Below are positions 46,091 to 64,000 of a stretch of DNA of 64,000 nucleotides, piece after piece (the stretch's first letter is position 1; each line of letters opens with the position of its first letter). The notes under the pieces are model-generated. The model was not told where the DNA came from, did no database searches, and worked only from the letters and a program-made list of their open reading frames with translations. A program made the translations under genes and the position numbers. The stretch comes from Planctomycetia bacterium (GTDB lineage: Bacteria; Planctomycetota; UBA8108; SXIK01), in contig SXIK01000010.1 in the NCBI GenBank assembly GCA_005772855.1, positions 2,886-66,885 on the forward strand, in the 5' to 3' direction.

Positions 46091-48640
46091 TCAGAGAGCC
46101 ACTTCCGTCACCAGGGCAAGCTCGTGTGGGTGGACGAGCTTCGAGTGCGTCGGGTAAAGGCGCAGGATCGTCACGTCGGATCCAGCGACTCCCTTCGCAG
46201 GACCGCCCTGGAGTTGGAAGCGGAGCCGATAAAGGCCAGCACCAAGATCCTTGATGTGGCTCGCGGGGTGGTCGGCACCACTGGATTCTCGGCAAAGCAA
46301 GTCTCGAGGTGCGATACCGCCAAGGAAAACCTCGATCTCGACGCCGCGTTGACCGGTACGCGCAGCTCTTCGCACGTGGACGAGCGGCCAGCTGCTGCGC
46401 ACGTTGTCCTTCCACGCCGCGAGCTCGCGCGCCTGTCGAGCTTGCGATGCTCCGACGCGATTGCCGTTTTCGAAAGCTGGACGATAGAGCTGCCGGGCAT
46501 ACTCGAGCACCATGTGCGACGTGCTGAACCGCGGGACAAGATCCGCCATCGAGGTCTTCACCTTCCGGATCCACTCCAGTGGCATGCCACGCTGATCCCG
46601 GCGGTAGTAAAGAGGCAAGATCTCCTTTTCGAGCACACGGTAGAGCGCCTCGGAGTCCTCCCGGTCTTGCAGAGACTCGTCCGGGTAGTCGATTGGCTTC
46701 CCGAAGGCCCAGCCCGTGGCTGGGGCGTAGCCCTCACACCACCAGCCATCAAGGATGCTGCAATTCAAACCGCAATTCACCGGCACTTTCTGCCCACTCG
46801 TGCCGCTCGCTTCGAGAGGTCTGCGAGGATTGTTGAGCCACAGGTCGACGCCCTGAACCAGGTGTTGAGCCACGTGGATGTCGTAGTTCTCGACAAGCGC
46901 GATGCGACCTCGAAACGCCTTCTGTCTCGAGATCGCAGCGACCTCCTCGAAGAGCTTCTTCCCCTGAGCGTCCTCCGGGTGCGGCTTCCCGCTGAAAATG
47001 ATCTGGAGGGGCCTTGAGCTCGACTCGAAGAGCTTTCGAGCCCGCTGAAGGTCACGGAAGAGCAGGTTCGCCCGCTTGTAGAGCGCGAATCGTCGAGCGA
47101 AGCCAATCGTGAAAATCTCTGGATCGAGAAGGTCTTTCACCACGGACGCGGCCTTGCCCGGGCTGAGGCCCGTGCGTTCAAGCCGAACGCGCTCCCGCTC
47201 TCGTACAAACTCCACCATGCGGCGTTTCAAGCCCTGCTTGACCGACCAGAGATCTTTCTCCGGGAGCCTGGAGGCTCCCTTCCAGAACTTCGCGTCGTCG
47301 AGTCGGCGTTCCCAGTCGCTGCCGACGTGTTTCGCGAGAAGCTCGTGCATCTCGGGCGCTACCCACGTGCTGGTGTGAATGCCGTTCGTCACCGACGTGA
47401 TGGGCGTCTCCTCGGCGCTGAAGCCCGGCCAGAGCTTCGACCACATCCTGCGCGAGACTTGCCCGTGCAGCGCGCTCACGCCGTTGCGAAATCTCGACAG
47501 TCGTAAAGCGAGCACAGTCATGCTCAAGAAGGGCCGTCCGTCCTTGCCGTGGTCAAGCCCAAGCGCCAGGTACTCATCGACAGGAATTCCAGCCGCCTCC
47601 GCGTGCCGGGCCAGGTAACGGCGCGCAAGGGGAAGGTCGAAGACCTCATTTCCCTCTGGCACAGGTGTGTGTGTTGTGAAGACCGTGTCGGCGGCGATGA
47701 GCTCGAGCCCTTCTGCCACGCTGAGCTTGTGTTCTTTGCGAACCTCGCGGAGCCGCTCAAGCGTCAGGAACGCGACGTGGCCCTCGTTGAGGTGCCAGAC
47801 CCCCGGACTACGGCCCGCGGCGCGGAGAGCTCGAACCCCGCCAATGCCCGCCACAATCTCTTGCCGCATGCGATCCTCACGGCTGCCGCCGTAAAGGCGG
47901 TACGTGATCTTCCGGTCCTCCGGACGATTCTCGCGAATGTCGGAGTCGAGCATGAGAATACGCGCACGCCCCACCTGGAGCTTCCAGAGTTTGAGGCTTA
48001 CAACTCGATCGGGAAACTCGACAGGGATGCGAATCTCCTTGCCAGGTCGGTCACAGAGGGCTTCGATCGGCAACCTGGAGAGATCGGCCCTTGGATAGAC
48101 AACCCGCTGGTGGTCTTTCCCATCCAGCTCCTGGCGAAAATATCCGTTGTGGTAGAAGAGCCCAACCCCCACCAGCGGCACAGCCTCGTCGCTGGCCGAC
48201 TTGGCATGGTCTCCCGCCAGAATCCCGAGCCCGCCCGCATAGACCGCGAGCGACTCGTGAACGCCGAATTCCATGGAAAAGTAGGCGACCGGACGATCGG
48301 CGGAGAGACCGGCCGGCGGACGGTGAGGCTCGGCGAGGCCAATCCATTCAAGGAAGACGGACTTCAGGAGCTTTCTGTATTCAGCATCGGCCTCGAGGGC
48401 ACTCAGAACTTTGCCATCCAGTGCAGCCACGAGGGTCCAGGGATTGCGGGGGCTGACGTTACTCCGGGTGCCAATGGCGCAGGCAGTGCGTCGCCAGAGT
48501 TCCACCGCGCCGTGGTTCCAGGTGGACCAGAGATTGGGAGCCATGGCCTTGAGCATGCCTTCAAGGTTGAGGGTAGCCTCGAGCATCATCTTCGATTTCT
48601 TGGACGGCTTTGCCGTCGTGGGTTTTCTTTTCAGTGTCAT
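46091..48640 (-). CDS. glgP: Alpha-glucan phosphorylase
   Basis: YFSMEFG, GGLGILAGD, HLNEGH, EASGTSG.K. Confidence 0.95.
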   Translation of the reverse strand: MTLKRKPTTAKPSKKSKMMLEATLNLEGMLKAMAPNLWSTWNHGAVELWRRTACAIGTRSNVSPRNPWTLVAALDGKVLSALEADAEYRKLLKSVFLEWIGLAEPHRPPAGLSADRPVAYFSMEFGVHESLAVYAGGLGILAGDHAKSASDEAVPLVGVGLFYHNGYFRQELDGKDHQRVVYPRADLSRLPIEALCDRPGKEIRIPVEFPDRVVSLKLWKLQVGRARILMLDSDIRENRPEDRKITYRLYGGSREDRMRQEIVAGIGGVRALRAAGRSPGVWHLNEGHVAFLTLERLREVRKEHKLSVAEGLELIAADTVFTTHTPVPEGNEVFDLPLARRYLARHAEAAGIPVDEYLALGLDHGKDGRPFLSMTVLALRLSRFRNGVSALHGQVSRRMWSKLWPGFSAEETPITSVTNGIHTSTWVAPEMHELLAKHVGSDWERRLDDAKFWKGASRLPEKDLWSVKQGLKRRMVEFVRERERVRLERTGLSPGKAASVVKDLLDPEIFTIGFARRFALYKRANLLFRDLQRARKLFESSSRPLQIIFSGKPHPEDAQGKKLFEEVAAISRQKAFRGRIALVENYDIHVAQHLVQGVDLWLNNPRRPLEASGTSGQKVPVNCGLNCSILDGWWCEGYAPATGWAFGKPIDYPDESLQDREDSEALYRVLEKEILPLYYRRDQRGMPLEWIRKVKTSMADLVPRFSTSHMVLEYARQLYRPAFENGNRVGASQARQARELAAWKDNVRSSWPLVHVRRAARTGQRGVEIEVFLGGIAPRDLLCRESSGADHPASHIKDLGAGLYRLRFQLQGGPAKGVAGSDVTILRLYPTHSKLVHPHELALVTEVAL

Positions 48641-48691
48641 GGGTAGCGGATGATATCGGCAAGTTCCCGGATTCCCTTTGGATCCAGGAAC

Positions 48692-48733
48692 AAAAAAACG
48701 TCGGGGACCAGCCTCGTTGCTGATCCCCGACGT
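48692..48733 (-). terminator. Rho-independent terminator of the Cys-rich repeat gene
   Basis: ACGTCGGGGATCAGC..GCTGGTCCCCGACGT followed by a T run on the minus strand. Confidence 0.85.
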
Positions 48734-48762
48734 CTCATCGAGACAGACGTGCGAGTAAGTGC

Positions 48763-51519
48763 TTACTCGCAGATCATGTCATCCGCCGTCGGGTCCTGAC
48801 CCGACGAGCTCGGCTCGGGCAGCGGGGCGCCGCCCAGGAAGAGCCTGATCAGGGTCGTGACCGCGTCGGAGACATCGACCTGAGCATCGTCGTTCGCGTC
48901 TGCCGCATCCAGGCAAGAGAGGAAACCCTCCCCCTGGAAAAGGAATCGGAGCGTGCTGAGCGCATCAGAGATGTCCACCACGTGGTCGCTGTTCGAGTCG
49001 CCGCGGATAAAGTCCGGCAATCCACGCGTCAAGGCCAAAGTCTCCTGCTTGCAGTGTTCGGACAGACGATCCTGGCAGTGGGCCAGGAATTCCCTCGCCT
49101 TCTCAGCGCAGTCTTCAGGCTTGCCGCCTTCCTCGACGCAGCGCGCCTCGAACCGCTTCGCGGCGGCTTCGCAATCGAAGTCGCACGGCTTCGGATCGGG
49201 AGTCGCGCAACGCTTGCGGCACGCGGCGAGGAACTCCTCGACGCGCGCGGCACACTCGACGTCGCTTCCGCCAGCGGCAACGCACTCCTCCTTGACCTTG
49301 GCGGCGGCGTTGCCGCAACGCTCGGCGCAGGTCGGGGGCTCCGGCGGCTCGTGGCCATCACCACACTTCTTCAGGCAGCCTTCGAGGAACTCGTTGACTG
49401 CGCGACGGCACTTGCGGGCAGCCTCAGCCTTGCACTTCTCGGGGTCGTTGCCGGCCTCGACGCAGGCCTTGATCTCCTCCTCGAGGCGATCCAGGCAGCG
49501 CGCGAACCTTTCACGAGCCGCATGAACACAACGCTCCTTGCACGGCTCGGGCCGCGGTGGACAATTCTCGAGGCACTCCTTCAAGACCTCGATGGCCTTG
49601 TGACGGCACTCCCGCGGAGTGCCGCCTGCCTCGGTGCATTCGGCAAAGACGCGGTGAGCGACTCGCACGCAACGAACCGCGCACGGCGGACGGCCGTCGT
49701 CACAACGGTCGGTGCACTCGTTGTAAAGGACACGGGCCTTGTGGGCACACTCCTGTGGATCGTTGCCAGCCTCGAGGCACTCCTCGCGGAAGGCGCGGGC
49801 CTTCACGGTGCAGATGACCACGCACGGGTAGGGCGGTGGGGCCGGCTCGGCGCAGCCCTCGGCGCAGGCCTTCAAGGCCTCCTGACCCTTCGCGGCGCAT
49901 TCCCTTTCCGTCCCGCCAGCCTCGCGACACTCGGCAACGACCTTGCGGGCGAAGTGAGTGCAGCGCTCCTTGCAATTCGGCGGATCGGGAATCTCACAGT
50001 GCTGACGGCAGTCGCGCAGGAAGTGGCGGGCGCGCTCGTGGCAGGCAGCCGGATCCGCGTTCGGATGATCCTGGAGGCACTTCTCGAGCAGCTCCTTGGC
50101 AGCCCTCTCGCAGCGCTCCGCGCAGTTCGGCGGGGGCGGGCTGTCGCAACGATCGAGGCATTCCTCCAGGACTTCCTCGGCTTTCGCACGACACCTCACG
50201 GGATCACCGCCGTTCGCCACGCACTCCTCGGCAAATCTCCGGGCGTGCTCCTTGCAGCGCTGTTCACAGCTCGGCGGGGGAGGCGGCGGGTCGTTGCACT
50301 GGTTCAAACACTCTTCCAGGAAAGCCTGCGCCTTCGCGGTGCATTCCGCGTCGGTAGCGCCAGCGGCGCTGCACTTCGCATGGAGCTCACGCGCCGCGCG
50401 CTTGCAGCGCTCGGCGCAGGTGGGCTCTTCGGGGGGCTGATCGCAGCGGTGGAGGCATTCCTCGGCAAACGCATCGGCCTTGCCCTGACACTCGGCCGGA
50501 TCGCCGTTATTGGCGAGGCACTTCTCGAGCAGATCCATGGAGGCGTGCTTGCAACGATCCGCACAGCTCGGCGGGGGCGTCGGCTCGCAGCCGGCCAGGC
50601 AGCGCTTGAGGAGCTCTCCCGCCCTGGCTTCGCAGTTCTCGCCGCCTGCGGCCGTACACTCATTGAAGAAACTCCGTGCTCTCTGACCACAGGCCACCTC
50701 GCAGCTGGGGGGCGGCGGAGCCGGCTCGCACCTGGGCAAGCATTCCCTGAGCGTCGTCTCAAAGACGGCCTGGCAGCGCTCGGGGCCGCCTCCACCTGCC
50801 GCGCACTTGTGGCGCGCTTCTTCGGCGATCCGGAGACACAGCGTCTTGCAGTCGCCCGGAGGAGGCGGTTCGCAGCCCCTGAGGCAGGCCACCAGCGCTT
50901 CCTTGGCCTTGATTTTACACCTTCCGGGGTCTCCACCCTCTGCAAGGCAACGGCGCTTGAGCTCCTCTGCCTTGCGGGCGCAGGCCTCTTCGCAGCTCAC
51001 TGGAGGCGGAGGAGGGGGCTGACAGCCGGGCAGACAGACCTGAAGGGCCTCCCTGGCGATGAGCGCGCAGCGCTCCGGGGAACCACCTTCTCGGGTGCAA
51101 GCAGCCGAGATCTCCAACGCCTTGGCCTTGCACCGCTCCTCGCAGGTAGGCTCCGGAGGTGGGGGGGGCGGGCACTTCTCCTTGCAGGCCATGATAGCAA
51201 CCTCGAAGGCGTGCTGGCACTCCTCGGTGCTCCCATGAGCCTCTGCACAGGCGTGCAGAGCCTCTTTGGCCTCGCGGAAGCAAGCATCCAGGCACGGAAG
51301 CGGCGGGGGCACGGGATCAACCTGCAAGCATCGCTTGAGAAACGCCTCGCGCATCGCTGCGCAATCAGCGTCACTCCCACCGAGCAACTTGCACTTGTCA
51401 AAAACCTCCTGGGCAATTTGCCGGCATCGATCGGCATCGAGGCGGACCTCGTCGGCTTGGAGCTTGATACACAAGCCCATCGAAAAGAAGAAAAACAAAC
51501 ACAATAGTCGGAATCGCAT
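48763..51519 (-). CDS. Secreted Cys-rich tandem-repeat protein with C-terminal dockerin-like domain
   Basis: SD AGGAGG then MRFRLLCLFFFF signal peptide; 16 repeats of about 48 aa; FIRGDSNSD..DISD..CLDAADANDD C-terminus. Confidence 0.9.
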   Translation of the reverse strand: MRFRLLCLFFFFSMGLCIKLQADEVRLDADRCRQIAQEVFDKCKLLGGSDADCAAMREAFLKRCLQVDPVPPPLPCLDACFREAKEALHACAEAHGSTEECQHAFEVAIMACKEKCPPPPPPEPTCEERCKAKALEISAACTREGGSPERCALIAREALQVCLPGCQPPPPPPVSCEEACARKAEELKRRCLAEGGDPGRCKIKAKEALVACLRGCEPPPPGDCKTLCLRIAEEARHKCAAGGGGPERCQAVFETTLRECLPRCEPAPPPPSCEVACGQRARSFFNECTAAGGENCEARAGELLKRCLAGCEPTPPPSCADRCKHASMDLLEKCLANNGDPAECQGKADAFAEECLHRCDQPPEEPTCAERCKRAARELHAKCSAAGATDAECTAKAQAFLEECLNQCNDPPPPPPSCEQRCKEHARRFAEECVANGGDPVRCRAKAEEVLEECLDRCDSPPPPNCAERCERAAKELLEKCLQDHPNADPAACHERARHFLRDCRQHCEIPDPPNCKERCTHFARKVVAECREAGGTERECAAKGQEALKACAEGCAEPAPPPYPCVVICTVKARAFREECLEAGNDPQECAHKARVLYNECTDRCDDGRPPCAVRCVRVAHRVFAECTEAGGTPRECRHKAIEVLKECLENCPPRPEPCKERCVHAARERFARCLDRLEEEIKACVEAGNDPEKCKAEAARKCRRAVNEFLEGCLKKCGDGHEPPEPPTCAERCGNAAAKVKEECVAAGGSDVECAARVEEFLAACRKRCATPDPKPCDFDCEAAAKRFEARCVEEGGKPEDCAEKAREFLAHCQDRLSEHCKQETLALTRGLPDFIRGDSNSDHVVDISDALSTLRFLFQGEGFLSCLDAADANDDAQVDVSDAVTTLIRLFLGGAPLPEPSSSGQDPTADDMICE

Positions 51520-51984
51520 CGAAATTACCTCCTGCCTGCGTGAAAAGCCCCGAACTTCGTTGTCTTCCGTCCGGAACAACGGTGAAACGCGAAAGCTCGC
51601 AAGCGCCTCGCAGGCTTGCCTGAGATTACAGGTACTTTGGACTTCAGACCCGACCGGCGCCGCAGCGTCATGCGTCGCCAATTCAATTCCATTGGATGGG
51701 AACCCGAAGAAGGCGCAAGGTTGGGACAGACTAGAGCAGCCGAACTTGGCGCCCATTTCGGTAAGCCCTGAGTTGAGCAGAGCCTCAGTGCGATTCCCTC
51801 CGATCGGCTCCCGTCGAACCCCCTCGAGCCCCAGACTTGGCTCAGGAAGGTCTTCAAGGGCGCGAATGCCTGTCGAAGGGCTCGCGATCCAGACGTTATC
51901 TATGGTCCCGTGTGGGACACCCCCGGTTCAAGCGAAATCTTGGGGAATATTCATGACGGGGGGATTCTCGGCGGGGTGGCTCAG

Positions 51985-52127
51985 TGCCGCGCGCCATGAA
52001 TAGGTGCCTGAAATCTCCTGGAGGCGCGCGGTACTCTTGAGGGGGGCCACGCTACCCCCCTCCCACTCCCCTTGGCGAGTACCGCCCAGGAGCTGTATTT
52101 TCAGGCACTAACTTACGGTGAGCGGTA
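51985..52127. repeat. MITE-like repeat B, full copy (143 bp)
   Basis: Imperfect ~29-bp terminal inverted repeats, nested internal stems, CTCAG on both flanks; second copy at 19258. Confidence 0.82.
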
Positions 52128-52132
52128 CTCAG

Positions 52133-52168
52133 TACCGCCCCCTCCTCGGCGCCTCATGGCGTCGGGCA
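52133..52168 (+). repeat. Degenerate fragment related to repeat A, abutting repeat B
   Basis: CCCCCTCCTCGGCGCCTCATGG matches the reverse complement of ~19903-19924; starts with TACCGC. Confidence 0.6.
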
Positions 52169-52213
52169 ATTCCGGCAGACGCCTGTGCTGGAGGCCGGTG
52201 ATCGCTCACACCC

Positions 52214-53416
52214 TCAGCCCTGCGACCCGGCCTCGTGGAGGGTGGAGTAGAACTCCCGTTTATCGGGAACACGGAAAATCATGTCCTTCACGGTGCCACC
52301 CGTCTGGTAGTTGCGTATCGCCTGGGCGATGTAGCGGGAGATGTCCAGGATGGTCATCCTGGAGCGGAGGGTGGCGCTTTGAAGCACCCGCGCCGTGACG
52401 TCGGGCCTTGTGTTTGCAGTGATCAACTCATCAAGAGCGGAGTCCTCGATGCGCGCCTCGAAAGTACCCTTCGTTGCGCTGTCAAACCCGTAGAAGTGAG
52501 CCACCACACCGATGACTTTTCTTGCACCGCCCTTCTTGGCGGCCTCGGCGGCCTGAAACATGGTGGTACCCGAGCGCATCATGTCGTCGTAAATGATCGC
52601 GATCTTCCCCTCGACCTCACCGAAAAAGTCTAGGATCTCCTTCTCATCAACAGAGCCTCGCTTCCTGAGTTGATGGACGGAAGCCTGCCCGGCCAGAAGC
52701 TCCGGCCTCATGTTCTTGAAGAGTTCTTCGCGGGTGCGGACACCGCCATCATCTGGAGCAATCAGGACCACAGTATTCAGCTCGTCGTTTAGCCGCCGGG
52801 ACAGGTAGTCGGCGAAGAGAGGCGCCATCTTGAGGTGGTCAAAGCTGTCAAACGCGATCTCGATTTGCTCCGCGTGAAGCTCGACGACGATAATGTGATT
52901 CATCCCACGGCGAATGAGATCGTCGGCGACGTCGCGAACGCTGATGGGCTCCCTTCGAGCATGTGTCTTGTCCTGTGCCTGGTACCAGAGACAAGGAGCG
53001 ACCACGTTGATCTGGTTGACCTTGCAGGTTCGGCGAAGGGCCGACACCATCCTGCAGGTGTTGGCAAGCGAGACATCCGGGTCTTCCCCATCTCCGACGG
53101 TCGCGATGACATAGACGTTCTTGCCGCGCAGGTTCTCGTGAATCACCGCCTTCTTTTCCCCGTCACCGAACACAATGATGTCCTGCTTCACCAGAGCCTT
53201 CCCCAGGTGGCCTGCGATGGCGTCCGAAAGTCGGCAATGAGGCCGCACAGGCACTATGGCGAAGGACTCGCGGAAGACACGGTCGCGCTCGCGAGTCAGC
53301 TCCTCATGCACCTTGTCTTCAATGATCCGCTCAAGCCACGAGCGGAACTGCGGATCGCCTTGGTAGTCGGTCATCATTCTAGTATCCTTCGCTTCCAGCC
53401 TCGACATGAAGGTCAC
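52214..53416 (-). CDS. prs: Ribose-phosphate pyrophosphokinase family protein
   Basis: FGDGE, ENLRGKNVY, QDK..REPI, ELHAEQI, APDDGG, YDDMMRSGTT. Start may be 53377. Confidence 0.8.
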   Translation of the reverse strand: MTFMSRLEAKDTRMMTDYQGDPQFRSWLERIIEDKVHEELTRERDRVFRESFAIVPVRPHCRLSDAIAGHLGKALVKQDIIVFGDGEKKAVIHENLRGKNVYVIATVGDGEDPDVSLANTCRMVSALRRTCKVNQINVVAPCLWYQAQDKTHARREPISVRDVADDLIRRGMNHIIVVELHAEQIEIAFDSFDHLKMAPLFADYLSRRLNDELNTVVLIAPDDGGVRTREELFKNMRPELLAGQASVHQLRKRGSVDEKEILDFFGEVEGKIAIIYDDMMRSGTTMFQAAEAAKKGGARKVIGVVAHFYGFDSATKGTFEARIEDSALDELITANTRPDVTARVLQSATLRSRMTILDISRYIAQAIRNYQTGGTVKDMIFRVPDKREFYSTLHEAGSQG

Positions 53417-53603
53417 GGGAACTTAACCCCAAAGACAACTCTTGTCGACGCCAGAATCTCTTTCAAAGCCAGGGCCGCTTCGATATAGTGACCGGTTCGT
53501 GTGCAAGGAGTCTTGACCGGCTCGAAAGAAGCCTGACGCGGCAGACTCCGTGTAGAAGGTGGGTCTATCGCTTTTGAGGTTCGCTTCGCCCGAGGAGACT
53601 TCC

Positions 53604-54548
53604 ATGGAGGTCACGTACTACGAAGATCCAGCCTGCATCTGGTGCTGGGCTTTTGAACCCGTGGCGACGAGGCTTGCTTTCGAATTCCGACAAACCATCA
53701 AACTCCGCCATGTGATGGGTGGCCTTCGCGATCAGCCGCCAGTCGACGTCGATTTCACCGTGCGGCAGTGGCAGAAGGCGTCCGAAATTTCCGGGATGCC
53801 TTTCGACACAAGGACCTGGCAGAGCCATGTGAATCAGACAACTTTCCCCGCATGCCGCGCCGTAAAGGGAGCCGCGCTGGTCAGCCCCGCCAGGGCCGCG
53901 AGACTCGCCCGTAGGCTCAGCGAAGCCTACTTCACCGAGCGAATCCCCATCGACAACCTCGATGCGATCCTTCAACTCGCTTCCGAGGTGGGGTTCAACC
54001 CCGACGTCCTGAAAGAAAACATCGCCAGCGGAAGAGCTGAGGAGTTCTTCACCCGGGACCGGCTCGAGGCAAGCCGGCATGGGTTCGGGTTCCCGACGAC
54101 CATCTTCTCCACGATCAAGACAGAATCAGCCGTCCTGCTGCAGGGTACAGTCGACTATGCAGTCATCTTGGCTGCTCTCAAGTCCCTGAACACCCCCAAG
54201 GCAAAGCGCCAACGGTTTCAAGACGTCCCCGAAGACTGGAAGGACCTCTTCAAGATTCACCCACGCCTCACCTCTACCGAGATTCAGCACGTTACTGGAC
54301 TGAGCGCCGACCGCGTCGCCGCGCGAGCTTCCCAGCTTGGACTGCACTGGACTGGCATCTTCTACCAGCGCGAGAAAACGGATCACGACACTGCGAGGGC
54401 CGGCCTGGAGGCTCCACCCAAACTTCCCGGCGAGCACGAGCCTTACGGCGACGAGCCCGCCAGCATCGGCCGGAAGTTGGAGGAGACGGACACGCTCTCG
54501 GGAGACCTCGACACGGAGGGCATCCGCGAGACCAGCGCCGCAGACTGA
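53604..54548 (+). CDS. DsbA-family (YjbH-like) protein
   Basis: DPACIWCWAFEP, VMGGL, PACRAVK, GFPT; GGAG SD. Confidence 0.85.
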   Translation: MEVTYYEDPACIWCWAFEPVATRLAFEFRQTIKLRHVMGGLRDQPPVDVDFTVRQWQKASEISGMPFDTRTWQSHVNQTTFPACRAVKGAALVSPARAARLARRLSEAYFTERIPIDNLDAILQLASEVGFNPDVLKENIASGRAEEFFTRDRLEASRHGFGFPTTIFSTIKTESAVLLQGTVDYAVILAALKSLNTPKAKRQRFQDVPEDWKDLFKIHPRLTSTEIQHVTGLSADRVAARASQLGLHWTGIFYQREKTDHDTARAGLEAPPKLPGEHEPYGDEPASIGRKLEETDTLSGDLDTEGIRETSAAD

Positions 54549-54762: not shown

Positions 54763-55872
54763 ATGAACCCCCGGGTTCCCATTCCAGGGCGAGGTGCCGC
54801 TCAAAATCCTGCCAATCGCTTCGACCGGCTCCACTACGAGCCAGAGCCGGAAATCGAAGATGGCCGAGACCCTCTGGACAACGAGTCGCCACTCCCCCGG
54901 ACGCAGTTCTTTCGCGACACGTCGCGCTCGCTCATCACGCAGAACGATAGCCCCGACGTCGGCTTCGCGGCCAGTATCAACATTTACCGTGGGTGCGAGC
55001 ACGGCTGCGTCTATTGCTACGCTCGAGCAACGCACGAGTACCTGGGCTTCTCCGCTGGCCTCGACTTCGAGACGAAGATCCTGGTGAAAGAGAACGCGCC
55101 CGAGCTGCTCTACTCGGAGCTGCTCTCACCCCGCTGGAAGCCACAGGTGCTGGCGATGAGCGGCGTGACGGACCCTTATCAGCCCATCGAGCGGCGGTTG
55201 AAGCTTACACGAAGCTGCCTGGAGGTTCTCGCTGAGTTTCGCAACCCTGTCGCAATCATCACCAAGAACCGCCTCGTGGCGAGGGATACGGATGTGCTCC
55301 TGCGGCTCACCGAGCACAGGGCCGCGGCAGTCTACGTTTCAGTCACGAGCCTGCGTCCGGAAATCCACCGGGTGCTCGAGCCGCGCACATCGGCACCCGA
55401 GCGCCGGCTCGCCACTATCAATGCCCTTGCGACGGCAGGAGTGCCAGTCGGCGTGATGGTCGCCCCGGTAATCCCGGGCCTTACCGATCACGAGCTGCCG
55501 CAGATCCTGGCAGCGGCGGCGCAGGCTGGCGCGAAGGATGCCGGGTACATTCTGCTGCGGCTACCCCATGCCGTGGCGCCCCTCTTCGAGGATTGGCTCG
55601 GGCACCACTTCCCCAACCGCAAGGAAAAGATACTCGCGAGAATCCGCGAGGTCCGTGGCGGGCGACTCAACGACCCCCGCTTCGGCACCCGCATGAAGGG
55701 CGAAGGTATCTTCGCGGAGCAAATCGCTGCGATGTTCCGCGTCGCCGCGGCACAGCATGGCCTGGCAAGGCAAAGCCTGGTGCTCTCCACGGCAAGTTTC
55801 CAGCGCCCCGGGCCGAGGCAGATGACGCTCTTCGACTATTTGAACCCGCCCGGAAGCGGCTCCGGGGGATAA
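54763..55872 (+). CDS. PA0069-family radical SAM protein (spore photoproduct lyase-like)
   Basis: GRGAAQNP.NRF, YRGCEHGCVYCYAR, TDPYQP.E; AAGGAG SD. Confidence 0.92.
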   Translation: MNPRVPIPGRGAAQNPANRFDRLHYEPEPEIEDGRDPLDNESPLPRTQFFRDTSRSLITQNDSPDVGFAASINIYRGCEHGCVYCYARATHEYLGFSAGLDFETKILVKENAPELLYSELLSPRWKPQVLAMSGVTDPYQPIERRLKLTRSCLEVLAEFRNPVAIITKNRLVARDTDVLLRLTEHRAAAVYVSVTSLRPEIHRVLEPRTSAPERRLATINALATAGVPVGVMVAPVIPGLTDHELPQILAAAAQAGAKDAGYILLRLPHAVAPLFEDWLGHHFPNRKEKILARIREVRGGRLNDPRFGTRMKGEGIFAEQIAAMFRVAAAQHGLARQSLVLSTASFQRPGPRQMTLFDYLNPPGSGSGG

Positions 55873-55985
55873 CAACCCCGTGCTCTCGAGCTCTTTCTCT
55901 TAAATTCTTGGGTCACAAGAAGCTCCCAACTTCGCTGGATGATCTTGTGGACACCCCGGAAACCGCCCCCCTGAAGGAGCTTGCC

Positions 55986-57749
55986 ATGAGACCCATCGCC
56001 GTCACCCTGGTCCTCGTCGTTTTCACTCTTCTCTCCCCCCCGGTCGCATACGCCGTCAAGATCCCTGTGGGCGATATCGCGATCGACCCCAACCCCGTCC
56101 TCGATCCGGGAAGGGAACCGCTCCAGTTCCGCCGGGGAGACGTTCGTGCCGACGGAAACATTGCTCTGAGCGACGCCATCACACTCCTGCGGCACCTCTT
56201 CTTCGGGGACCCGGCCACCCTCCCCTGCGCGGATGCGGCCGACACCGACGACGACGGTATCTTGACCATCGGCGACGCGGTCGCGATCTTGAGCCACCTC
56301 TACTCGGGTAGTAAACAGATCCGTGGACCCGTCGTGGCGTGTGGAGCGGACCCCACGAACGATTTCCTGGGCTGCGACTCCTTCCCTGCCTGCATCGCAG
56401 ATCCGGCCCCCTCCGACGCCGAAAAAAGGCTCGACATGGCCTACCACTACGCTCCGGTCCACCACCAGGATGCCTCGGATTCGGGTTACCGCTACGACAT
56501 GCTGGCCCGCATCGACTTCAACGGGAACTGGGACATGGCGAGCAAGTGGGAAGCAGCCGCGACCATGGGGGTTCCGGCAGCGCACGTCTACTACAGCGTG
56601 GTCTCCACGGCGACCCACTGGTACCTCGTGTACGCCTTCTACCACCCTCGTGACTGGACCAATGAGAGCTTTGACCAGGAGCACGAGAACGACATGGAGG
56701 GGCTGCTCCTGGTGGTTTTCCGCGATGGAAGCAGGTACGGCAAGCTCGAGGCGGCCGTCACGGTGGCCCACCTTGATTTCTACAGCTATACGCCGGGGCC
56801 GACCCACCTGAGCGCTGGCGCGGAAGACCTCGACGGGAACCTGGGGCTCATCGACGGAAGCCATCCCCTCACCTACCAGGAAGCGAAGGGTCACGGGGTC
56901 TACGCCTACGGGGGATCTCACACCGAAGACGGTGATGGGATTTGGTACTACCCTTCGCTGCCTTACCTCGGGCACGAGGAGGCGACACGGCCAGCCCTTC
57001 CGACACCTCAGAGCGGTGACACCAACCCGAAGGCCCACTACAAGCTCCTCGACATCTTCGAGGCAGGTGGTTTGTGGGATCGACGAGAAAACGCGGAGAC
57101 CTTCCACAGCTTTGGCTCGTTCCGCGGAGACGACGGTGGAGAATGCGGGGATGGCGTGACGGTCACCTGCTCGGAGAACTCCCCACACCCGCCGTGGGGC
57201 TGGGACGACGTGAATGACGGCCCGGTCTTCGCCGGCGAGCTTGCTTTCGACCCCGCCCACCTGGTCGGCCGGTACTTCCACGTAACGACGGCGTTTGCCA
57301 GGGACTACGAGCGCAATCCCTATGCAGTCGAGATTGTCCTGGAGGAGCTCACGGTGCTCTCGAATCAGGACCCCAGCGGGGATCGATCCGACCCCTACTT
57401 CAACCTGTACTTCGGGGACGGCGTGGGCGAAGAGACCCATGGGGGCTACGGTGACGGGATCGTGGACGGCGACAGCGGCGCACAAGTCTCCTGGGTCTTG
57501 TGGGATCCTCCCATGAGCACCCGAATCAACCTCGCGACCGCCATGCCGCGCAATCGCTTCTACACGATCAAGTCAACGGTCCCCACCTTCCGGATCCGCG
57601 TCATGGACTGGGACAACGGGAGCGGCGACGAGTGGCTCATGAGCCCGGCGCAACCGTACGCGGAAGAGCGCACGAGCGGTAGCTTCACCTACGAGTTCGG
57701 GCGCAGCCGCCTCAAGGTCCGCCTGACCGACGCGCCAGGCGGGCGTTGA
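55986..57749 (+). CDS. Secreted protein: dockerin-like + NPP1/Vps62-like + C2-like domains
   Basis: AAGGAG SD, signal peptide, FRRGDV..SDA..CADAADTDDDG, YAFYHPRDW..HENDME, SDPYF..VMDWD..GDE. Confidence 0.75.
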   Translation: MRPIAVTLVLVVFTLLSPPVAYAVKIPVGDIAIDPNPVLDPGREPLQFRRGDVRADGNIALSDAITLLRHLFFGDPATLPCADAADTDDDGILTIGDAVAILSHLYSGSKQIRGPVVACGADPTNDFLGCDSFPACIADPAPSDAEKRLDMAYHYAPVHHQDASDSGYRYDMLARIDFNGNWDMASKWEAAATMGVPAAHVYYSVVSTATHWYLVYAFYHPRDWTNESFDQEHENDMEGLLLVVFRDGSRYGKLEAAVTVAHLDFYSYTPGPTHLSAGAEDLDGNLGLIDGSHPLTYQEAKGHGVYAYGGSHTEDGDGIWYYPSLPYLGHEEATRPALPTPQSGDTNPKAHYKLLDIFEAGGLWDRRENAETFHSFGSFRGDDGGECGDGVTVTCSENSPHPPWGWDDVNDGPVFAGELAFDPAHLVGRYFHVTTAFARDYERNPYAVEIVLEELTVLSNQDPSGDRSDPYFNLYFGDGVGEETHGGYGDGIVDGDSGAQVSWVLWDPPMSTRINLATAMPRNRFYTIKSTVPTFRIRVMDWDNGSGDEWLMSPAQPYAEERTSGSFTYEFGRSRLKVRLTDAPGGR

Positions 57750-61657: not shown

Positions 61658-64000
61658 TCACCCCGGGACAGAAGAGCCCGCGTCCCGTAACTCCTGCAAA
61701 CGAATTCCAGCTTGCAGGTAACGCAAGTAGACGTTTCGCTTTGTGAGGCCCAGTTCCTTCGAAATGCGCGCCACGTCCCCGCCACAGACCTCAAAGAGGT
61801 GGAGGAGAAACTCCCGCTTCACGTCCGCAAGCACTTGCTCGTAAGTGCGGCCGGTGAAGGCCCAACGCGGAAACGAAATGCGTGATTTCTCGAGCCCGAG
61901 CACGTGCGCAACCTGCTTCTCGTCGACGGTCGCTCCGGCGGTTAACGAAAGGCGACGGATCACCGATTCGAGCTCGCGCACGTTGCCTGGCCAGGAGTGA
62001 CACTTGAGCAGTTCCAGAGCACGCGGCGCCAGGTCGGGAGCATGTCCGCGCATTTGCCCGCGGAAATGATCCATCAGTAGCGGCACGTCTTCGGCTCGCT
62101 CCCTCAGAGGTGGGACCTCAATGGAGATCCCACGGAGGCGATAAAAAAGGTCTTTCCTGAACTCCCCGGCAGCCATCAAGCTACCCAGGTCTCGCTGGCT
62201 GCTCGAGATTAGCCGAACATCCATCTCTATCTCCACCAGGGAGCCCAGCGGACGAACAGCGCTCGTCTCAAGCATACGCACAAGCTTCGCTTGCACCTCG
62301 GGAGTCAGGGAGTCGACGTTATCGAGGTAAAACGTGCCTCCCTGGGCCTGGGCCATGCAACCCACTCGAGCGCGCTCCGCGCCCGTAAAAGCCCCCACCT
62401 CGTAGCCGAAAATCTCCGCCTCAAGAAGCGCCGCTGGAATCGCCGAACAGTCCTGCGCCACAAAGGGTCCTTCACGGCACGGACTTACAGAATGGATCCA
62501 GTGGGCCAGGTGATCCTTTCCTGTGCCCGACTCGCCCGTGAGGAGGACCGGCAGCTTCGAGTCGCGCGTACGCTCGATCAAGCTCACGACCTCACACATC
62601 CTTGGCGACTTGCTCGCGAGCAGGATCGGACTCAGCGTGCGAGTTTGCGTGGACATTTCCGAGGGGGAGGCGGTGGGGGGCAACGGTTGCGCCAGATCCG
62701 GGCGCTGGCGCGCCAGCGCTTCACCCACGAGCACGCCCGCGGCTTCGAGGAAGTCGGGGAGGTCCGCAGCGAGGGGATCTGTCCCGGCGAGGAGGAAAAT
62801 CACCCCCCAGCGCCGTGTGCCCGGCCCGCGCACCTCGGCACACCACCCATGCGGCACAGCTCCACTGCCTGTCCCGAGACAGGCCCTTCGCAAGACGTCG
62901 AGGTCCTGGCGGAATTCGACGACGCGGCCCCGAACAACGCTTCGGCCCATGCCCTCCTCGAGAAAAATTGCACCACCCGCCGCCTCTGCCCCCTCCATGA
63001 TCCAATCGAGCGCTTGAGACAGCTCCACAGTGCGCCGGAGCAAAAGGAGCGTCTCGTACCGCCGGCTCGCGGCTCGCGCCTCCTCCGCCGGGCCTGCTTT
63101 GCCGCTGGCATCCTTCCCGAGCCCAAGACGAATTTGGTGCTCTCGCGCGAGGTAGCTTCTGCGGTCCTCCGGCTTGAGCCCACGGACAAACGCTGCCCTG
63201 GAAAAGCGCAGCCTGCGGCGAGCGCCGGGAACCTCGTGCTCGGAGGCGACCAGATCGAACAGCCACCGCACTTCTCCCTGCAGGGCCGAGCTGAGTTGCG
63301 TGGCGGCATCTCGCAGCCTCTTGCGCACCGCTTGGCCTCCCGGGCGGCCAACGAGCAGATCTAGACGCGCCTCGAGCCACGGGAGCAGTCGCGCGGCGCC
63401 TCGCGAGCCGCTTCCAGCTTCGTGAATGCCGATCGCGGCTCGGGCCTCCTTGATCCGCGTCCTTGCGTTGGCGGCATCGCGACGACGCAAGGCAACCTCG
63501 ACCATCGCGATGGAGCACTGAAACGAGCCGGGGGCTTGCTTCGTGCCATTGAAGATCTTCCTCGTCCGATGGAAGATCCGCTCGGCAAGCTCAAGATCGC
63601 CCAGCTCCAGGCGAGTCAGCCCGTGATACAGGCGATCCCACAATCCGGCGTGGTCGATGGCGCGCCAGTCGGTGGGTAAGGCGCCGAGAAGCGCGCGGGC
63701 TTCCTTGCATCGGCCACAAAGGGCCTCGAGGTAGGCACCGCGTGCCGCCGCGGAGCGCTCCAGCCGCGGATCAAGCTTGGAGCGCAAGAGCGCATCGAGG
63801 ATCTCACGCGCATGGCACCACCTTCCCTCAAGGATCTCGTTTTCGAGGAGGAAGATCCGCGCCGAGGAGGCGACGAGCGGATCGGGCACCTCCTCGGCAA
63901 TACGGATCGATTCCAGCCAGGCCTCGCGGGAGTCCTCGAGCGCCAGCCTTGCCACGAGCCCCTTCGTATAAAGGAGGAAGAGGTGTGCTCGGCGAGATCG
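61658..64000 (-). CDS. Sigma54-dependent Fis-family activator with TPR-like N-terminal region (5' end outside the window)
   Basis: GESGTGKD, GAFTGA, WPGNVREL, C-terminal HTH; frame is open to base 64000. Confidence 0.9.
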   Translation of the reverse strand, partial: RSRRAHLFLLYTKGLVARLALEDSREAWLESIRIAEEVPDPLVASSARIFLLENEILEGRWCHAREILDALLRSKLDPRLERSAAARGAYLEALCGRCKEARALLGALPTDWRAIDHAGLWDRLYHGLTRLELGDLELAERIFHRTRKIFNGTKQAPGSFQCSIAMVEVALRRRDAANARTRIKEARAAIGIHEAGSGSRGAARLLPWLEARLDLLVGRPGGQAVRKRLRDAATQLSSALQGEVRWLFDLVASEHEVPGARRRLRFSRAAFVRGLKPEDRRSYLAREHQIRLGLGKDASGKAGPAEEARAASRRYETLLLLRRTVELSQALDWIMEGAEAAGGAIFLEEGMGRSVVRGRVVEFRQDLDVLRRACLGTGSGAVPHGWCAEVRGPGTRRWGVIFLLAGTDPLAADLPDFLEAAGVLVGEALARQRPDLAQPLPPTASPSEMSTQTRTLSPILLASKSPRMCEVVSLIERTRDSKLPVLLTGESGTGKDHLAHWIHSVSPCREGPFVAQDCSAIPAALLEAEIFGYEVGAFTGAERARVGCMAQAQGGTFYLDNVDSLTPEVQAKLVRMLETSAVRPLGSLVEIEMDVRLISSSQRDLGSLMAAGEFRKDLFYRLRGISIEVPPLRERAEDVPLLMDHFRGQMRGHAPDLAPRALELLKCHSWPGNVRELESVIRRLSLTAGATVDEKQVAHVLGLEKSRISFPRWAFTGRTYEQVLADVKREFLLHLFEVCGGDVARISKELGLTKRNVYLRYLQAGIRLQELRDAGSSVPG

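Follow-up and report, generated by a model that had tools for sequence, protein, structure and literature searches.

What does a planctomycete do with an apparently exported protein in which about one residue in ten is a cysteine? The question is raised by a gene on the minus strand of a 64,000-nucleotide (nt) stretch, hereafter the window, of the Planctomycetia bacterium assembly GCA_005772855.1 (contig SXIK01000010.1, positions 2,886 to 66,885; GTDB lineage Planctomycetota, UBA8108, SXIK01). An earlier note, made from the sequence without database searches, had described its product (P0001) as a chain of 16 disulfide-stapled helical hairpins with a dockerin-like end. Following this up computationally, we find that the hairpin repeat is an undescribed domain family, unnamed in Pfam, NCBIfam and the Protein Data Bank (PDB) yet not an orphan. 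Its predicted fold is well supported, while the biological role, which we infer, is less settled. We consider it probable that P0001 is an exported, comb-like chain of disulfide-hardened hairpins, which would serve as a structural or spacer module tethered by its tail.

P0001 contains 100 Cys (10.9% of its residues, alongside 14.1% Ala, 12.1% Glu, 9.0% Pro and 2.3% His). Two are found in the signal peptide, two in the C-terminal domain and 96 in the 16 repeats, in line with the signal peptide, the 16 repeats of mirror-symmetric spacing and the approximately 96 Cys first reported. Eleven of the 16 repeats (R2-5, R7-9, R11-13 and R15) show the spacing CX3CX10CX9CX10CX3C exactly, R6 and R10 deviate in the length of the loop alone (7 and 11 residues, respectively), and the outer motif C1X3C2 ... 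C5X3C6 is present in 14 of the 16. Spacing counts also agree with what had been said of the two unusual units: R1 has four Cys (CX10CX9CX10C), and R14 has eight and is longer in both arms (C3C10C10C9C7C10C3C). The Gly-Gly turn and the polyproline linkers are equally recognizable, as loops mostly read A-G-G-[DS]-[PE] and linkers are rich in Pro (for example PPPPPPEPT, QPPPPPPVS and EPPPPGD). This hairpin spacing recurs in 18 of 48 database matches and in a paralog encoded by the same genome, and chance is therefore excluded. Apart from the Cys, the conserved positions of the unit (95 repeats) are A9, A30, V/L12-13, V/L33-34, L38 and G20-G21. Family-wide, the linkers contain 33% Pro (570 linkers), and T, S or D immediately precedes C1 in 294 of these 570, which together with a Glu at the third position may act as helix capping.

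Structure prediction with AlphaFold2 (AF2) points to a two-helix hairpin as the likely fold of this unit. For repeats 3-5 (49 aligned triplets), the kind of check on one to three repeats that the earlier note had called for, AF2 returned six helices in three hairpins (5-22/27-45, 55-72/77-93 and 103-120/125-142), with a predicted local distance difference test score (pLDDT) of 89.6 and a predicted template modelling score (pTM) of 0.39. In the full-length model (23 rows; pLDDT 83.3, pTM 0.24) all 16 units are helix-loop-helix; within repeats 2-13 most of each arm exceeds a pLDDT of 90, whereas the linkers score below 50-70. The Cys at 5/45, 9/41 and 20/30 of the triplet model each sum to 50 around the turn at 23-26, meaning that the two members of each pair are equidistant from the turn. 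The lengthening of R14 adds exactly one Cys on each arm.

The way in which Cys are lost in the family follows the same pairing. Of 957 units from 161 proteins aligned to a hidden Markov model (HMM) of the unit, 914 keep all six Cys; C1 and C6 are both gone in 24, C3 and C4 in two, a single Cys in eight, and nine have arm indels, while two Cys from different nested pairs were lost in none. Joint losses of C1 and C6 are found in first, last and internal units. Covariation was computed on 396 non-redundant 41-mers as mutual information with average product correction (MI-APC), and the top pairs of non-Cys positions, 12-33, 13-30 and 9-34 (0.18, 0.13 and 0.11), all lie above the maximum of 0.076 obtained over 20 column shuffles. 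These three pairs run across the arms, between the Cys rungs, and seven of the ten top covarying pairs fall within 3 of mirror register (18% in the background). At this interface, Ala predominates at positions 9 and 30, hydrophobic residues occupy 12-13, 33-34 and 38, and 20-21 are Gly-Gly. Taken together, the AF2 models, the paired Cys losses, the cross-arm covariation and the arms of R14 lend indirect support to the predicted nested disulfides C1-C6, C2-C5 and C3-C4 closing an antiparallel alpha-hairpin, as the earlier note had it, and each hairpin is probably clamped by three disulfide bonds.

Such chains are not restricted to a single protein. Our word-indexed protein search yielded 48 matches, 18 with a hairpin chain and 30 sharing only the last ~80 residues. 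Apart from P0026 and P0037, in which the tail is the sole shared part, all of them are either unnamed or "hypothetical". Orthologs of P0001 have 62% (L006) and 57% (P0002) identity. Across 19 chain proteins, the arm spacings are fixed at X10 and X3 (the terminal one being X4 in some cases) and the loops (5-19 residues) and linkers (5-16 residues) vary, a pattern that rigid arms and free turns would give. The 4-Cys first repeat is also seen in orthologs, the long 8-Cys repeat is found at an equivalent position in P0002-P0004, L006 and L007, and 14 of the 19 chain proteins retain the CX7C ending. Five chain proteins carry an extra N-terminal domain of ~240 residues that is Cys-poor, of beta type and without Pfam match. 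The paralog in the same genome (G000:C40:70827-72722, L086:3942-5837:-; 632 aa) lies ~16 kb away on the same contig, ~4 kb past the end of the window, and opens with a 4-Cys unit, continues with eight 6-Cys units and closes with another 4-Cys unit and a dockerin-like tail. Downstream of it, on the same strand, come an open reading frame (ORF) of 344 aa with a cohesin-like domain and a tail, and then an ORF of 1722 aa. The latter, the 3' part of which corresponds to window positions 61658-64000, looks, from its sequence, like a fusion of a Ser/Thr kinase with a sigma-54-type activator.

Among 401 sampled Planctomycetota genomes, four have the hairpin chain, its own genome included, with two or three hairpin loci per genome. 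By family, it occurs in two of two genomes of its own family, in the single genome of a second family of the order, in none of five of a third family and nowhere else in the sample. Metagenomes are a richer source, as an exhaustive search with a three-repeat profile retrieved 575 clusters (50% identity) at E<=1e-3, 320 at E<=1e-10 and 106 at E<=1e-30; the 150 matches listed include 144 new proteins, 23 of which have the tail. Other architectures in this set are lipoproteins in which PKD domains are combined with a C-terminal array, an array with five Kazal domains behind it, a trypsin domain ahead of an array, and a CarboxypepD_reg protein. Fusions to lectin-like domains also occur in relatives; in P0001 the array itself would make up the whole passenger. 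The largest member seen, P0050, comes from a metagenome-assembled genome (MAG) of another phylum (Bradymonadia) and is a lipoprotein-like protein of 2649 aa with 373 Cys and at least 42 units, "hypothetical" at NCBI.

We could not assign a name to this repeat. Three families were listed for P0001 in a Pfam scan at E<=1, none of them a repeat family, and the NCBIfam scan returned 0 families; the Pfam matches to Terpene_syn_C_2 (29.3 bits) and Ferritin on P0001, and to Thionin in P0052, were dismissed as composition artefacts, as no stretch passed. Searching the PDB with the repeat sequence profile raised two chains at E<=1, both designed proteins. With Foldseek, 0 of 423 PDB matches to the triplet model reached E<=0.001 (best template modelling (TM) score 0.26), and 0 of at least 500 did so for the full-length model (TM<=0.08; only designed or generic alpha-repeats). 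In the ESM Atlas, the whole protein matched dockerin clusters only, and the hairpin part (residues 70-655) had no usable match. The searchable literature, beyond whose reach lie most subscription journals and supplements, yielded no paper describing such a bacterial repeat, and it is for this lack of a description that we rate the family as undescribed. The earlier statement that no bacterial family is recognizable thus holds for the curated libraries; in metagenomes the repeat is widespread. It is missing from these libraries though it forms 575 clusters there, some of whose proteins carry dozens of copies.

Where would such a chain reside? A signal-like N-terminus was found in 114 of the 135 evaluable family proteins, 20 of them lipobox-like, and by this crude hydropathy rule the family seems overwhelmingly extracytoplasmic. 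In P0001 it consists of MRFR, a 14-residue hydrophobic stretch and KLQA before DEV, and the ortholog P0002 has ARA before DEV. DsbA-like ORFs that bear a signal, with the motifs CPYC and CHFC, are present in the genome. Neither DsbB nor VKOR was found in its assembly (96% complete, 244 contigs), hence we cannot point to the partner that usually re-oxidises DsbA, and for these two reasons we regard oxidative folding in this organism as plausible, not secured. Of three hairpin-bearing relatives (G200, G128 and G338), G200 and G128 have a VKOR-DsbA fusion (~465 aa) above the Pfam cut-off and the third a weak match, and no DsbB was found in any of them; the search for Erv1/ALR (PF04777) gave 0 of 4 genomes and is uninformative, as its control rang nowhere. 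As a separate observation, the genome under study holds hundreds of conserved extracytoplasmic Cys pairs despite the lack of a detected DsbB or VKOR. The neighbouring DsbA-like gene at 53559-54548 (Thioredoxin_5/DSBA) was considered as the oxidase of the hairpin protein and rejected, because conservation begins at about residue 16 and there is no signal peptide, so that its product looks cytoplasmic.

The missing DsbB and VKOR, together with the 10.9% Cys and with the groundwater, freshwater and sediment metagenomes that provide the nearest records and runs, could also be taken to mean that the Cys are reduced, at least in low-oxygen habitats. The chain would then offer 96 thiols, with up to three thiol pairs per hairpin, as a surface metal binder, metal store or redox buffer. 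We find this improbable, since no metal-binding family is among the three listed by Pfam at E<=1, and His is scarce (2.3%) and not conserved beside Cys. Moreover, owing to the small Ala at positions 9 and 30 of their interface, the helices approach to the distance that disulfides require, Cys are lost by nested pairs and not as whole 4-Cys sites, and signal-bearing DsbA-like oxidoreductases are encoded.

The second part of P0001 to be explained is its tail, which is of a type with the general motif F-x-R-G-D...C-x-D-A-x-D-x-N-D-D...G-x-DPT-x-D-x-L-x-C. In 30 aligned tails, a loop D-x-N-x-D-x-x-x-D-x-x-D followed by a helix is duplicated, with invariant D/N columns; AF2 places the helices at 850-862 and 883-895. 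One conserved Cys lies between the two segments and a second ends the C-terminal extension. The dockerin-like nature seen in the earlier note is borne out by the profile of these 30 tails, which matches solved type I dockerins at E values of 1.1e-5 to 1e-4 and aligns to the CelS dockerin 2mte. Pfam Dockerin_1 (PF00404) itself stays below its cut-off of 22.9 bits on P0001 (16.8 bits for the whole protein, 19.8 for the tail alone), is matched by 20 of the 30 sister tails at E<=0.01 and reaches 23.2 bits in the homolog P0017. Using the tail HMM, we detected 170 tail-bearing ORFs in this 5.0-Mb genome, 132 with the tail at the very C-terminus and 38 with it elsewhere, four having two copies. One ORF with an internal copy and no Pfam family lies in the window (55236-57746, plus strand). 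Scanning species-representative genomes gave at least 540 tail stretches, mostly in Planctomycetota MAGs; a few were in MAGs labelled Woesearchaeota, Omnitrophota, Nanoarchaeota and others. The tail is a lineage-wide tag, with predicted Ca binding.

Candidate partners are few. Five cohesin-like matches were found in the genome, one of them above the cut-off, and one cohesin-like ORF lies directly downstream of the paralog and is itself tail-bearing; another cohesin-like domain is at C192:17058-18152. A predicted complex of this cohesin-like domain (5 rows) with the tail of P0001 (30 rows) scored 0.02 and, having been run without controls, gives no verdict and is not used here. In a metagenomic protein of 844 aa (P0024), two stretches pass for Pfam Cohesin (E 3.3e-15) next to a dockerin-like tail, a combination that suggests self-linking cohesin-dockerin networks in the lineage.

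The signal peptide, the Cys-hairpin cassette and the C-terminal domain of P0001 mirror the layout of plant precursors with up to 12 modules, as given in the accessible text of PMC11591084, and the outer CX3C...CX3C is the hairpinin motif. Could P0001 therefore be a polyprotein precursor, whose linkers are cut so that 16 hairpin peptides, for instance antimicrobial ones, are released as from plant alpha-hairpinin precursors? We consider this very unlikely. The linkers, with their 33% Pro, contain a dibasic site in 10 of 570 cases and show no conserved cleavage motif, and the repeats are near neutral or acidic (net charge -4 to +3, 13 repeats scored). Relatives have their arrays fused in frame to enzymes and binding domains, the tail is of an anchoring type common to 170 ORFs, and no protease, transporter or immunity gene is adjacent.

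We would rather picture a protein that is exported and held on the cell surface. Each unit of ~41 residues would consist of two ~18-residue helices with a G-G-[DS]-[PE] turn, zipped by the ladder C1-C6, C2-C5 and C3-C4 with Ala and Val/Leu rungs in between; repeat 1 would have two Cys rungs and repeat 14 four. The hairpins would be joined base to base by Pro-rich linkers of 6-11 residues, and because each hairpin has its two ends at the base, this joining would result in a non-globular comb-like chain and not in a compact solenoid. Through the tail, the chain would presumably be tethered to a partner in the envelope, cohesin-like or other, and the array might act as a structural, spacer or coat module resisting proteases and denaturation. 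What suggests such a role is that the fold accounts for every conserved residue, that the linkers are Pro-rich and the models non-globular, and that the domain partners are many and extracellular. Among the functions raised in the earlier note, a filament or spacer fits best, metal or redox chemistry appears less likely, and the precursor fits worst.

Transcription is hinted at, though not proven, for a close relative of this organism. In one study of freshwater sediment, three metatranscriptome libraries have contigs of ~95% identity that lie on parts of 48719-50900 and 51076-51319, and a DNA run of the same study contains the same variant along the whole gene. In this variant 34 changed codons are visible, 15 of them synonymous and 19 not, and the sole Cys codon touched changes synonymously.

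Besides the missing DsbB and VKOR, several points weigh against a tethered, structural chain of disulfide-closed hairpins. Many of the 24 joint losses of C1 and C6 concern orthologous first repeats, so that the independent loss events number fewer than 24, and paired loss and covariation are both drawn from related sequences. The low pTM of the AF2 models leaves packing between hairpins possible. Contigs of RNA libraries can hold DNA, and their source here is a related strain. In the lipoprotein relatives the array is at the far end from the anchor, which misfits a stalk. Finally, orthologous repeats have 42-69% identity at non-Cys arm positions for 12 of the 13 compared (34% for the remaining one), as against a mean of 25% between the repeats of one protein, and a generic spacer would not seem to need such position-specific identity.

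This last contrast, found between collinear repeats, would mean that each position keeps its own surface, as expected of an interaction scaffold or adhesin in which every hairpin is a specialised binding surface (for proteins, polymers, or prey or host surfaces) and the tail fixes the chain to the cell. Arrays placed distally in lipoproteins, or next to Kazal and trypsin domains, would fit this as well, as would the Bradymonadia protein with its 42 or more hairpins. Even so, we think it rather unlikely: there is no conserved surface patch common to the repeats, the position-specific identity may reflect an old duplication without homogenisation, and the neighbouring genes are housekeeping ones (prs, alpha-glucan phosphorylase and metH), with no partner known. 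We thus retain the structural or spacer module as our preferred reading.

The features of the locus are collected in Table 1. As had been proposed, this is a real gene with its own Shine-Dalgarno sequence and terminator. The longest minus-strand frame spans 48763..51756, and the ATG at 51519 was chosen as the start preceded by AGGAGG. The terminator hairpin is GC-rich, with a folding energy of -36.3 kcal/mol (z = -5.4; 0 of 200 shuffles as stable).

Table 1. Features of the hairpin gene and its product in window coordinates.
Feature	Position	Strand	Description
Coding sequence P0001	48763..51519	-	918 aa and TAA stop; no internal stop in translation
Shine-Dalgarno AGGAGG	51528..51533	-	8 nt upstream of the ATG at 51519; read directly
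Signal peptide, residues 1-22	51454..51519	-	MRFR / LLCLFFFFSMGLCI / KLQA, then DEV; inferred cleavage site
Intrinsic terminator	48689..48736	-	18-bp stem (48736-48695), 6-nt loop, T-run; 3' of TAA
Repeat 1, residues 32-64	51328..51426	-	4-Cys hairpin without outer pair C1/C6; AF2 helices 29-45, 50-65
Repeats 2-13, residues 76-653	49561..51294	-	twelve 6-Cys hairpins, Pro-rich linkers of 6-9 residues; AF2 helix pairs
Repeat 14, residues 660-719	49363..49542	-	long 8-Cys hairpin, one more Cys per arm; AF2 helices 660-678 + 680-688, 693-720
Repeat 15, residues 731-771	49207..49329	-	6-Cys hairpin; from Cys spacing and AF2
Repeat 16, residues 779-823	49051..49185	-	ends in CX7C; AF2 helix 801-831 extends towards the tail domain
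Dockerin-like C-terminal domain, residues 835-918	48766..49017	-	two Ca-loop-helix segments, Cys pair 869/917, G-x-DPT-x-D-x-L-x-C end

The long antisense frame at 48982..51507 (plus strand) has none of the supports of the hairpin gene and was taken as a shadow frame, due to the high GC content throughout the window (58-65%). The flanking genes are of the housekeeping type, with a ribose-phosphate pyrophosphokinase (prs) upstream on the same strand and an alpha-glucan phosphorylase-like gene and metH downstream, and the neighbourhood gives no pointer to a pathway. The order of a divergent DsbA-like gene, prs and the hairpin gene (window positions 52214-54548 plus the gene) is kept in two related MAGs (L006 and L007), except that in L006 an inserted hybrid histidine kinase separates prs from the hairpin gene. 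No Rfam match was found for 48500-52400 at E<=0.1, and the single weak site raised by a promoter scan lies inside the coding region, hence no promoter was assigned to the gene.

The intergenic region upstream of the hairpin gene contains a dispersed repeat of ~150 nt with inverted ends (~51980-52135), which has 20 other blastn matches in the genome (80-94% identity) and no Rfam match. In the DNA run, a ~95%-identical strain lacks 51990-52158, 167 nt being swapped for 20 nt, and contig depth at the repeat rises from ~7 to more than 100. It looks like a small mobile element, or one of the repetitive extragenic palindrome (REP) or miniature inverted-repeat transposable element (MITE) kind.

How does this hairpin compare with known systems? 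CHCH or twin-CX9C proteins (Cox17, Mia40 substrates) of the mitochondrial intermembrane space are antiparallel alpha-hairpins with two parallel disulfide rungs. The likeness lies in the antiparallel alpha-hairpin clamped by disulfide rungs, here predicted; CHCH proteins differ in their CX9C spacing, their two rungs and their single domain, the repeats here having X3 and X10, and there is no Pfam match to CHCH for P0001 at E<=1. Csp proteins, a precedent for the metal-binding alternative, store Cu(I) with Cys lining helical bundles. Neither Csp nor DUF326 is matched in Pfam at E<=1, and in place of four-helix bundles AF2 shows two-helix hairpins that stand alone, at low pTM. Designed helical repeats and bundles (4uos, 7udk and 5cwb), the sole PDB entries raised, share the idealised helix-loop-helix composition; these matches are not significant (E 0.007 by sequence, TM <= 0.26 by fold), and the designs are compact solenoids without cystine ladders.

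The tail shares the duplicated Ca-loop and helix with type I dockerins (PDB 2mte, 1daq, 2y3n and 3ul4), from which it differs by the extra Cys between the loops and the P-x-P...G-x-DPT-x-D-x-L-x-C extension. Unlike cellulosomal dockerins, it is found on ~170 very diverse ORFs of a planctomycete that looks non-cellulolytic, where cohesin-like partners are few and weak. P0001 also draws notice to dockerin-like tagging on a very large scale in these genomes.

An architectural parallel is seen with plant alpha-hairpinins (MBP-1, Sm-AMP-X and Tk-AMP-X), which are likewise helix-loop-helix with an outer CX3C...CX3C, the nested disulfides being predicted in our case, and which share a cassette of modules behind a signal peptide. 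According to the accessible text of PMC11591084, plant modular precursors combine a signal peptide with cassettes that hold as many as 12 modules of the alpha-hairpinin type, and the commonest six-Cys motif is C-X3-C-X3-C-X10-C-X3-C-X3-C; this text covers plant transcriptomes only, with the string "prokaryot" appearing 0 times. No sequence relation was seen in Pfam, PDB or database searches. The bacterial arms are about twice as long (X3 + X10) and have a third disulfide, by prediction, beside the turn; the linkers are polyproline without processing sites, and the chain has a dockerin-like tail. The likeness to hairpinins and twin-CX9C folds drawn in the earlier note is therefore apt for the helix-loop-helix and the outer CX3C, and P0001 belongs to neither family, given its spacing, arm length, rungs and descent. 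The repeat is a variant of the cystine-stabilised alpha-hairpin theme, and its likeness to plant alpha-hairpinins is convergent. Its simple design, predicted to be two helices and three nested disulfides, would make it an attractive hyperstable scaffold, a bacterial counterpart of the plant hairpinins.

Closer to home, the available text of PMC8567305 and PMC12673574 describes YTV proteins as Cys-rich and present in cell-wall preparations of Planctomycetia. The hairpin protein resembles them as a Cys-rich planctomycete repeat protein with, judging from its N-terminus, an extracytoplasmic location; it differs in lacking the YTV motif and in its fold. PF07639 (YTV) was found in 25 of the 401 sampled Planctomycetota genomes, all from classes other than that of the window, and in 0 of the 4 hairpin-bearing genomes, so that YTV-bearing and hairpin-bearing genomes do not overlap in this sample. 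The hairpin protein is thus a candidate for the Cys- and Pro-rich extracytoplasmic proteins of planctomycete lineages without YTV. As a bolder extension, to which we give a low probability, cystine-ladder alpha-hairpins on polyproline linkers might be a building material of bacterial surfaces that has so far escaped recognition. The chains would then be a major disulfide-cross-linked envelope or coat component in this non-Planctomycetia lineage without YTV, hooked into the dockerin-like display of ~170 proteins, with the same module recruited independently as a tough extracellular spacer in other phyla, including in Bradymonadia.

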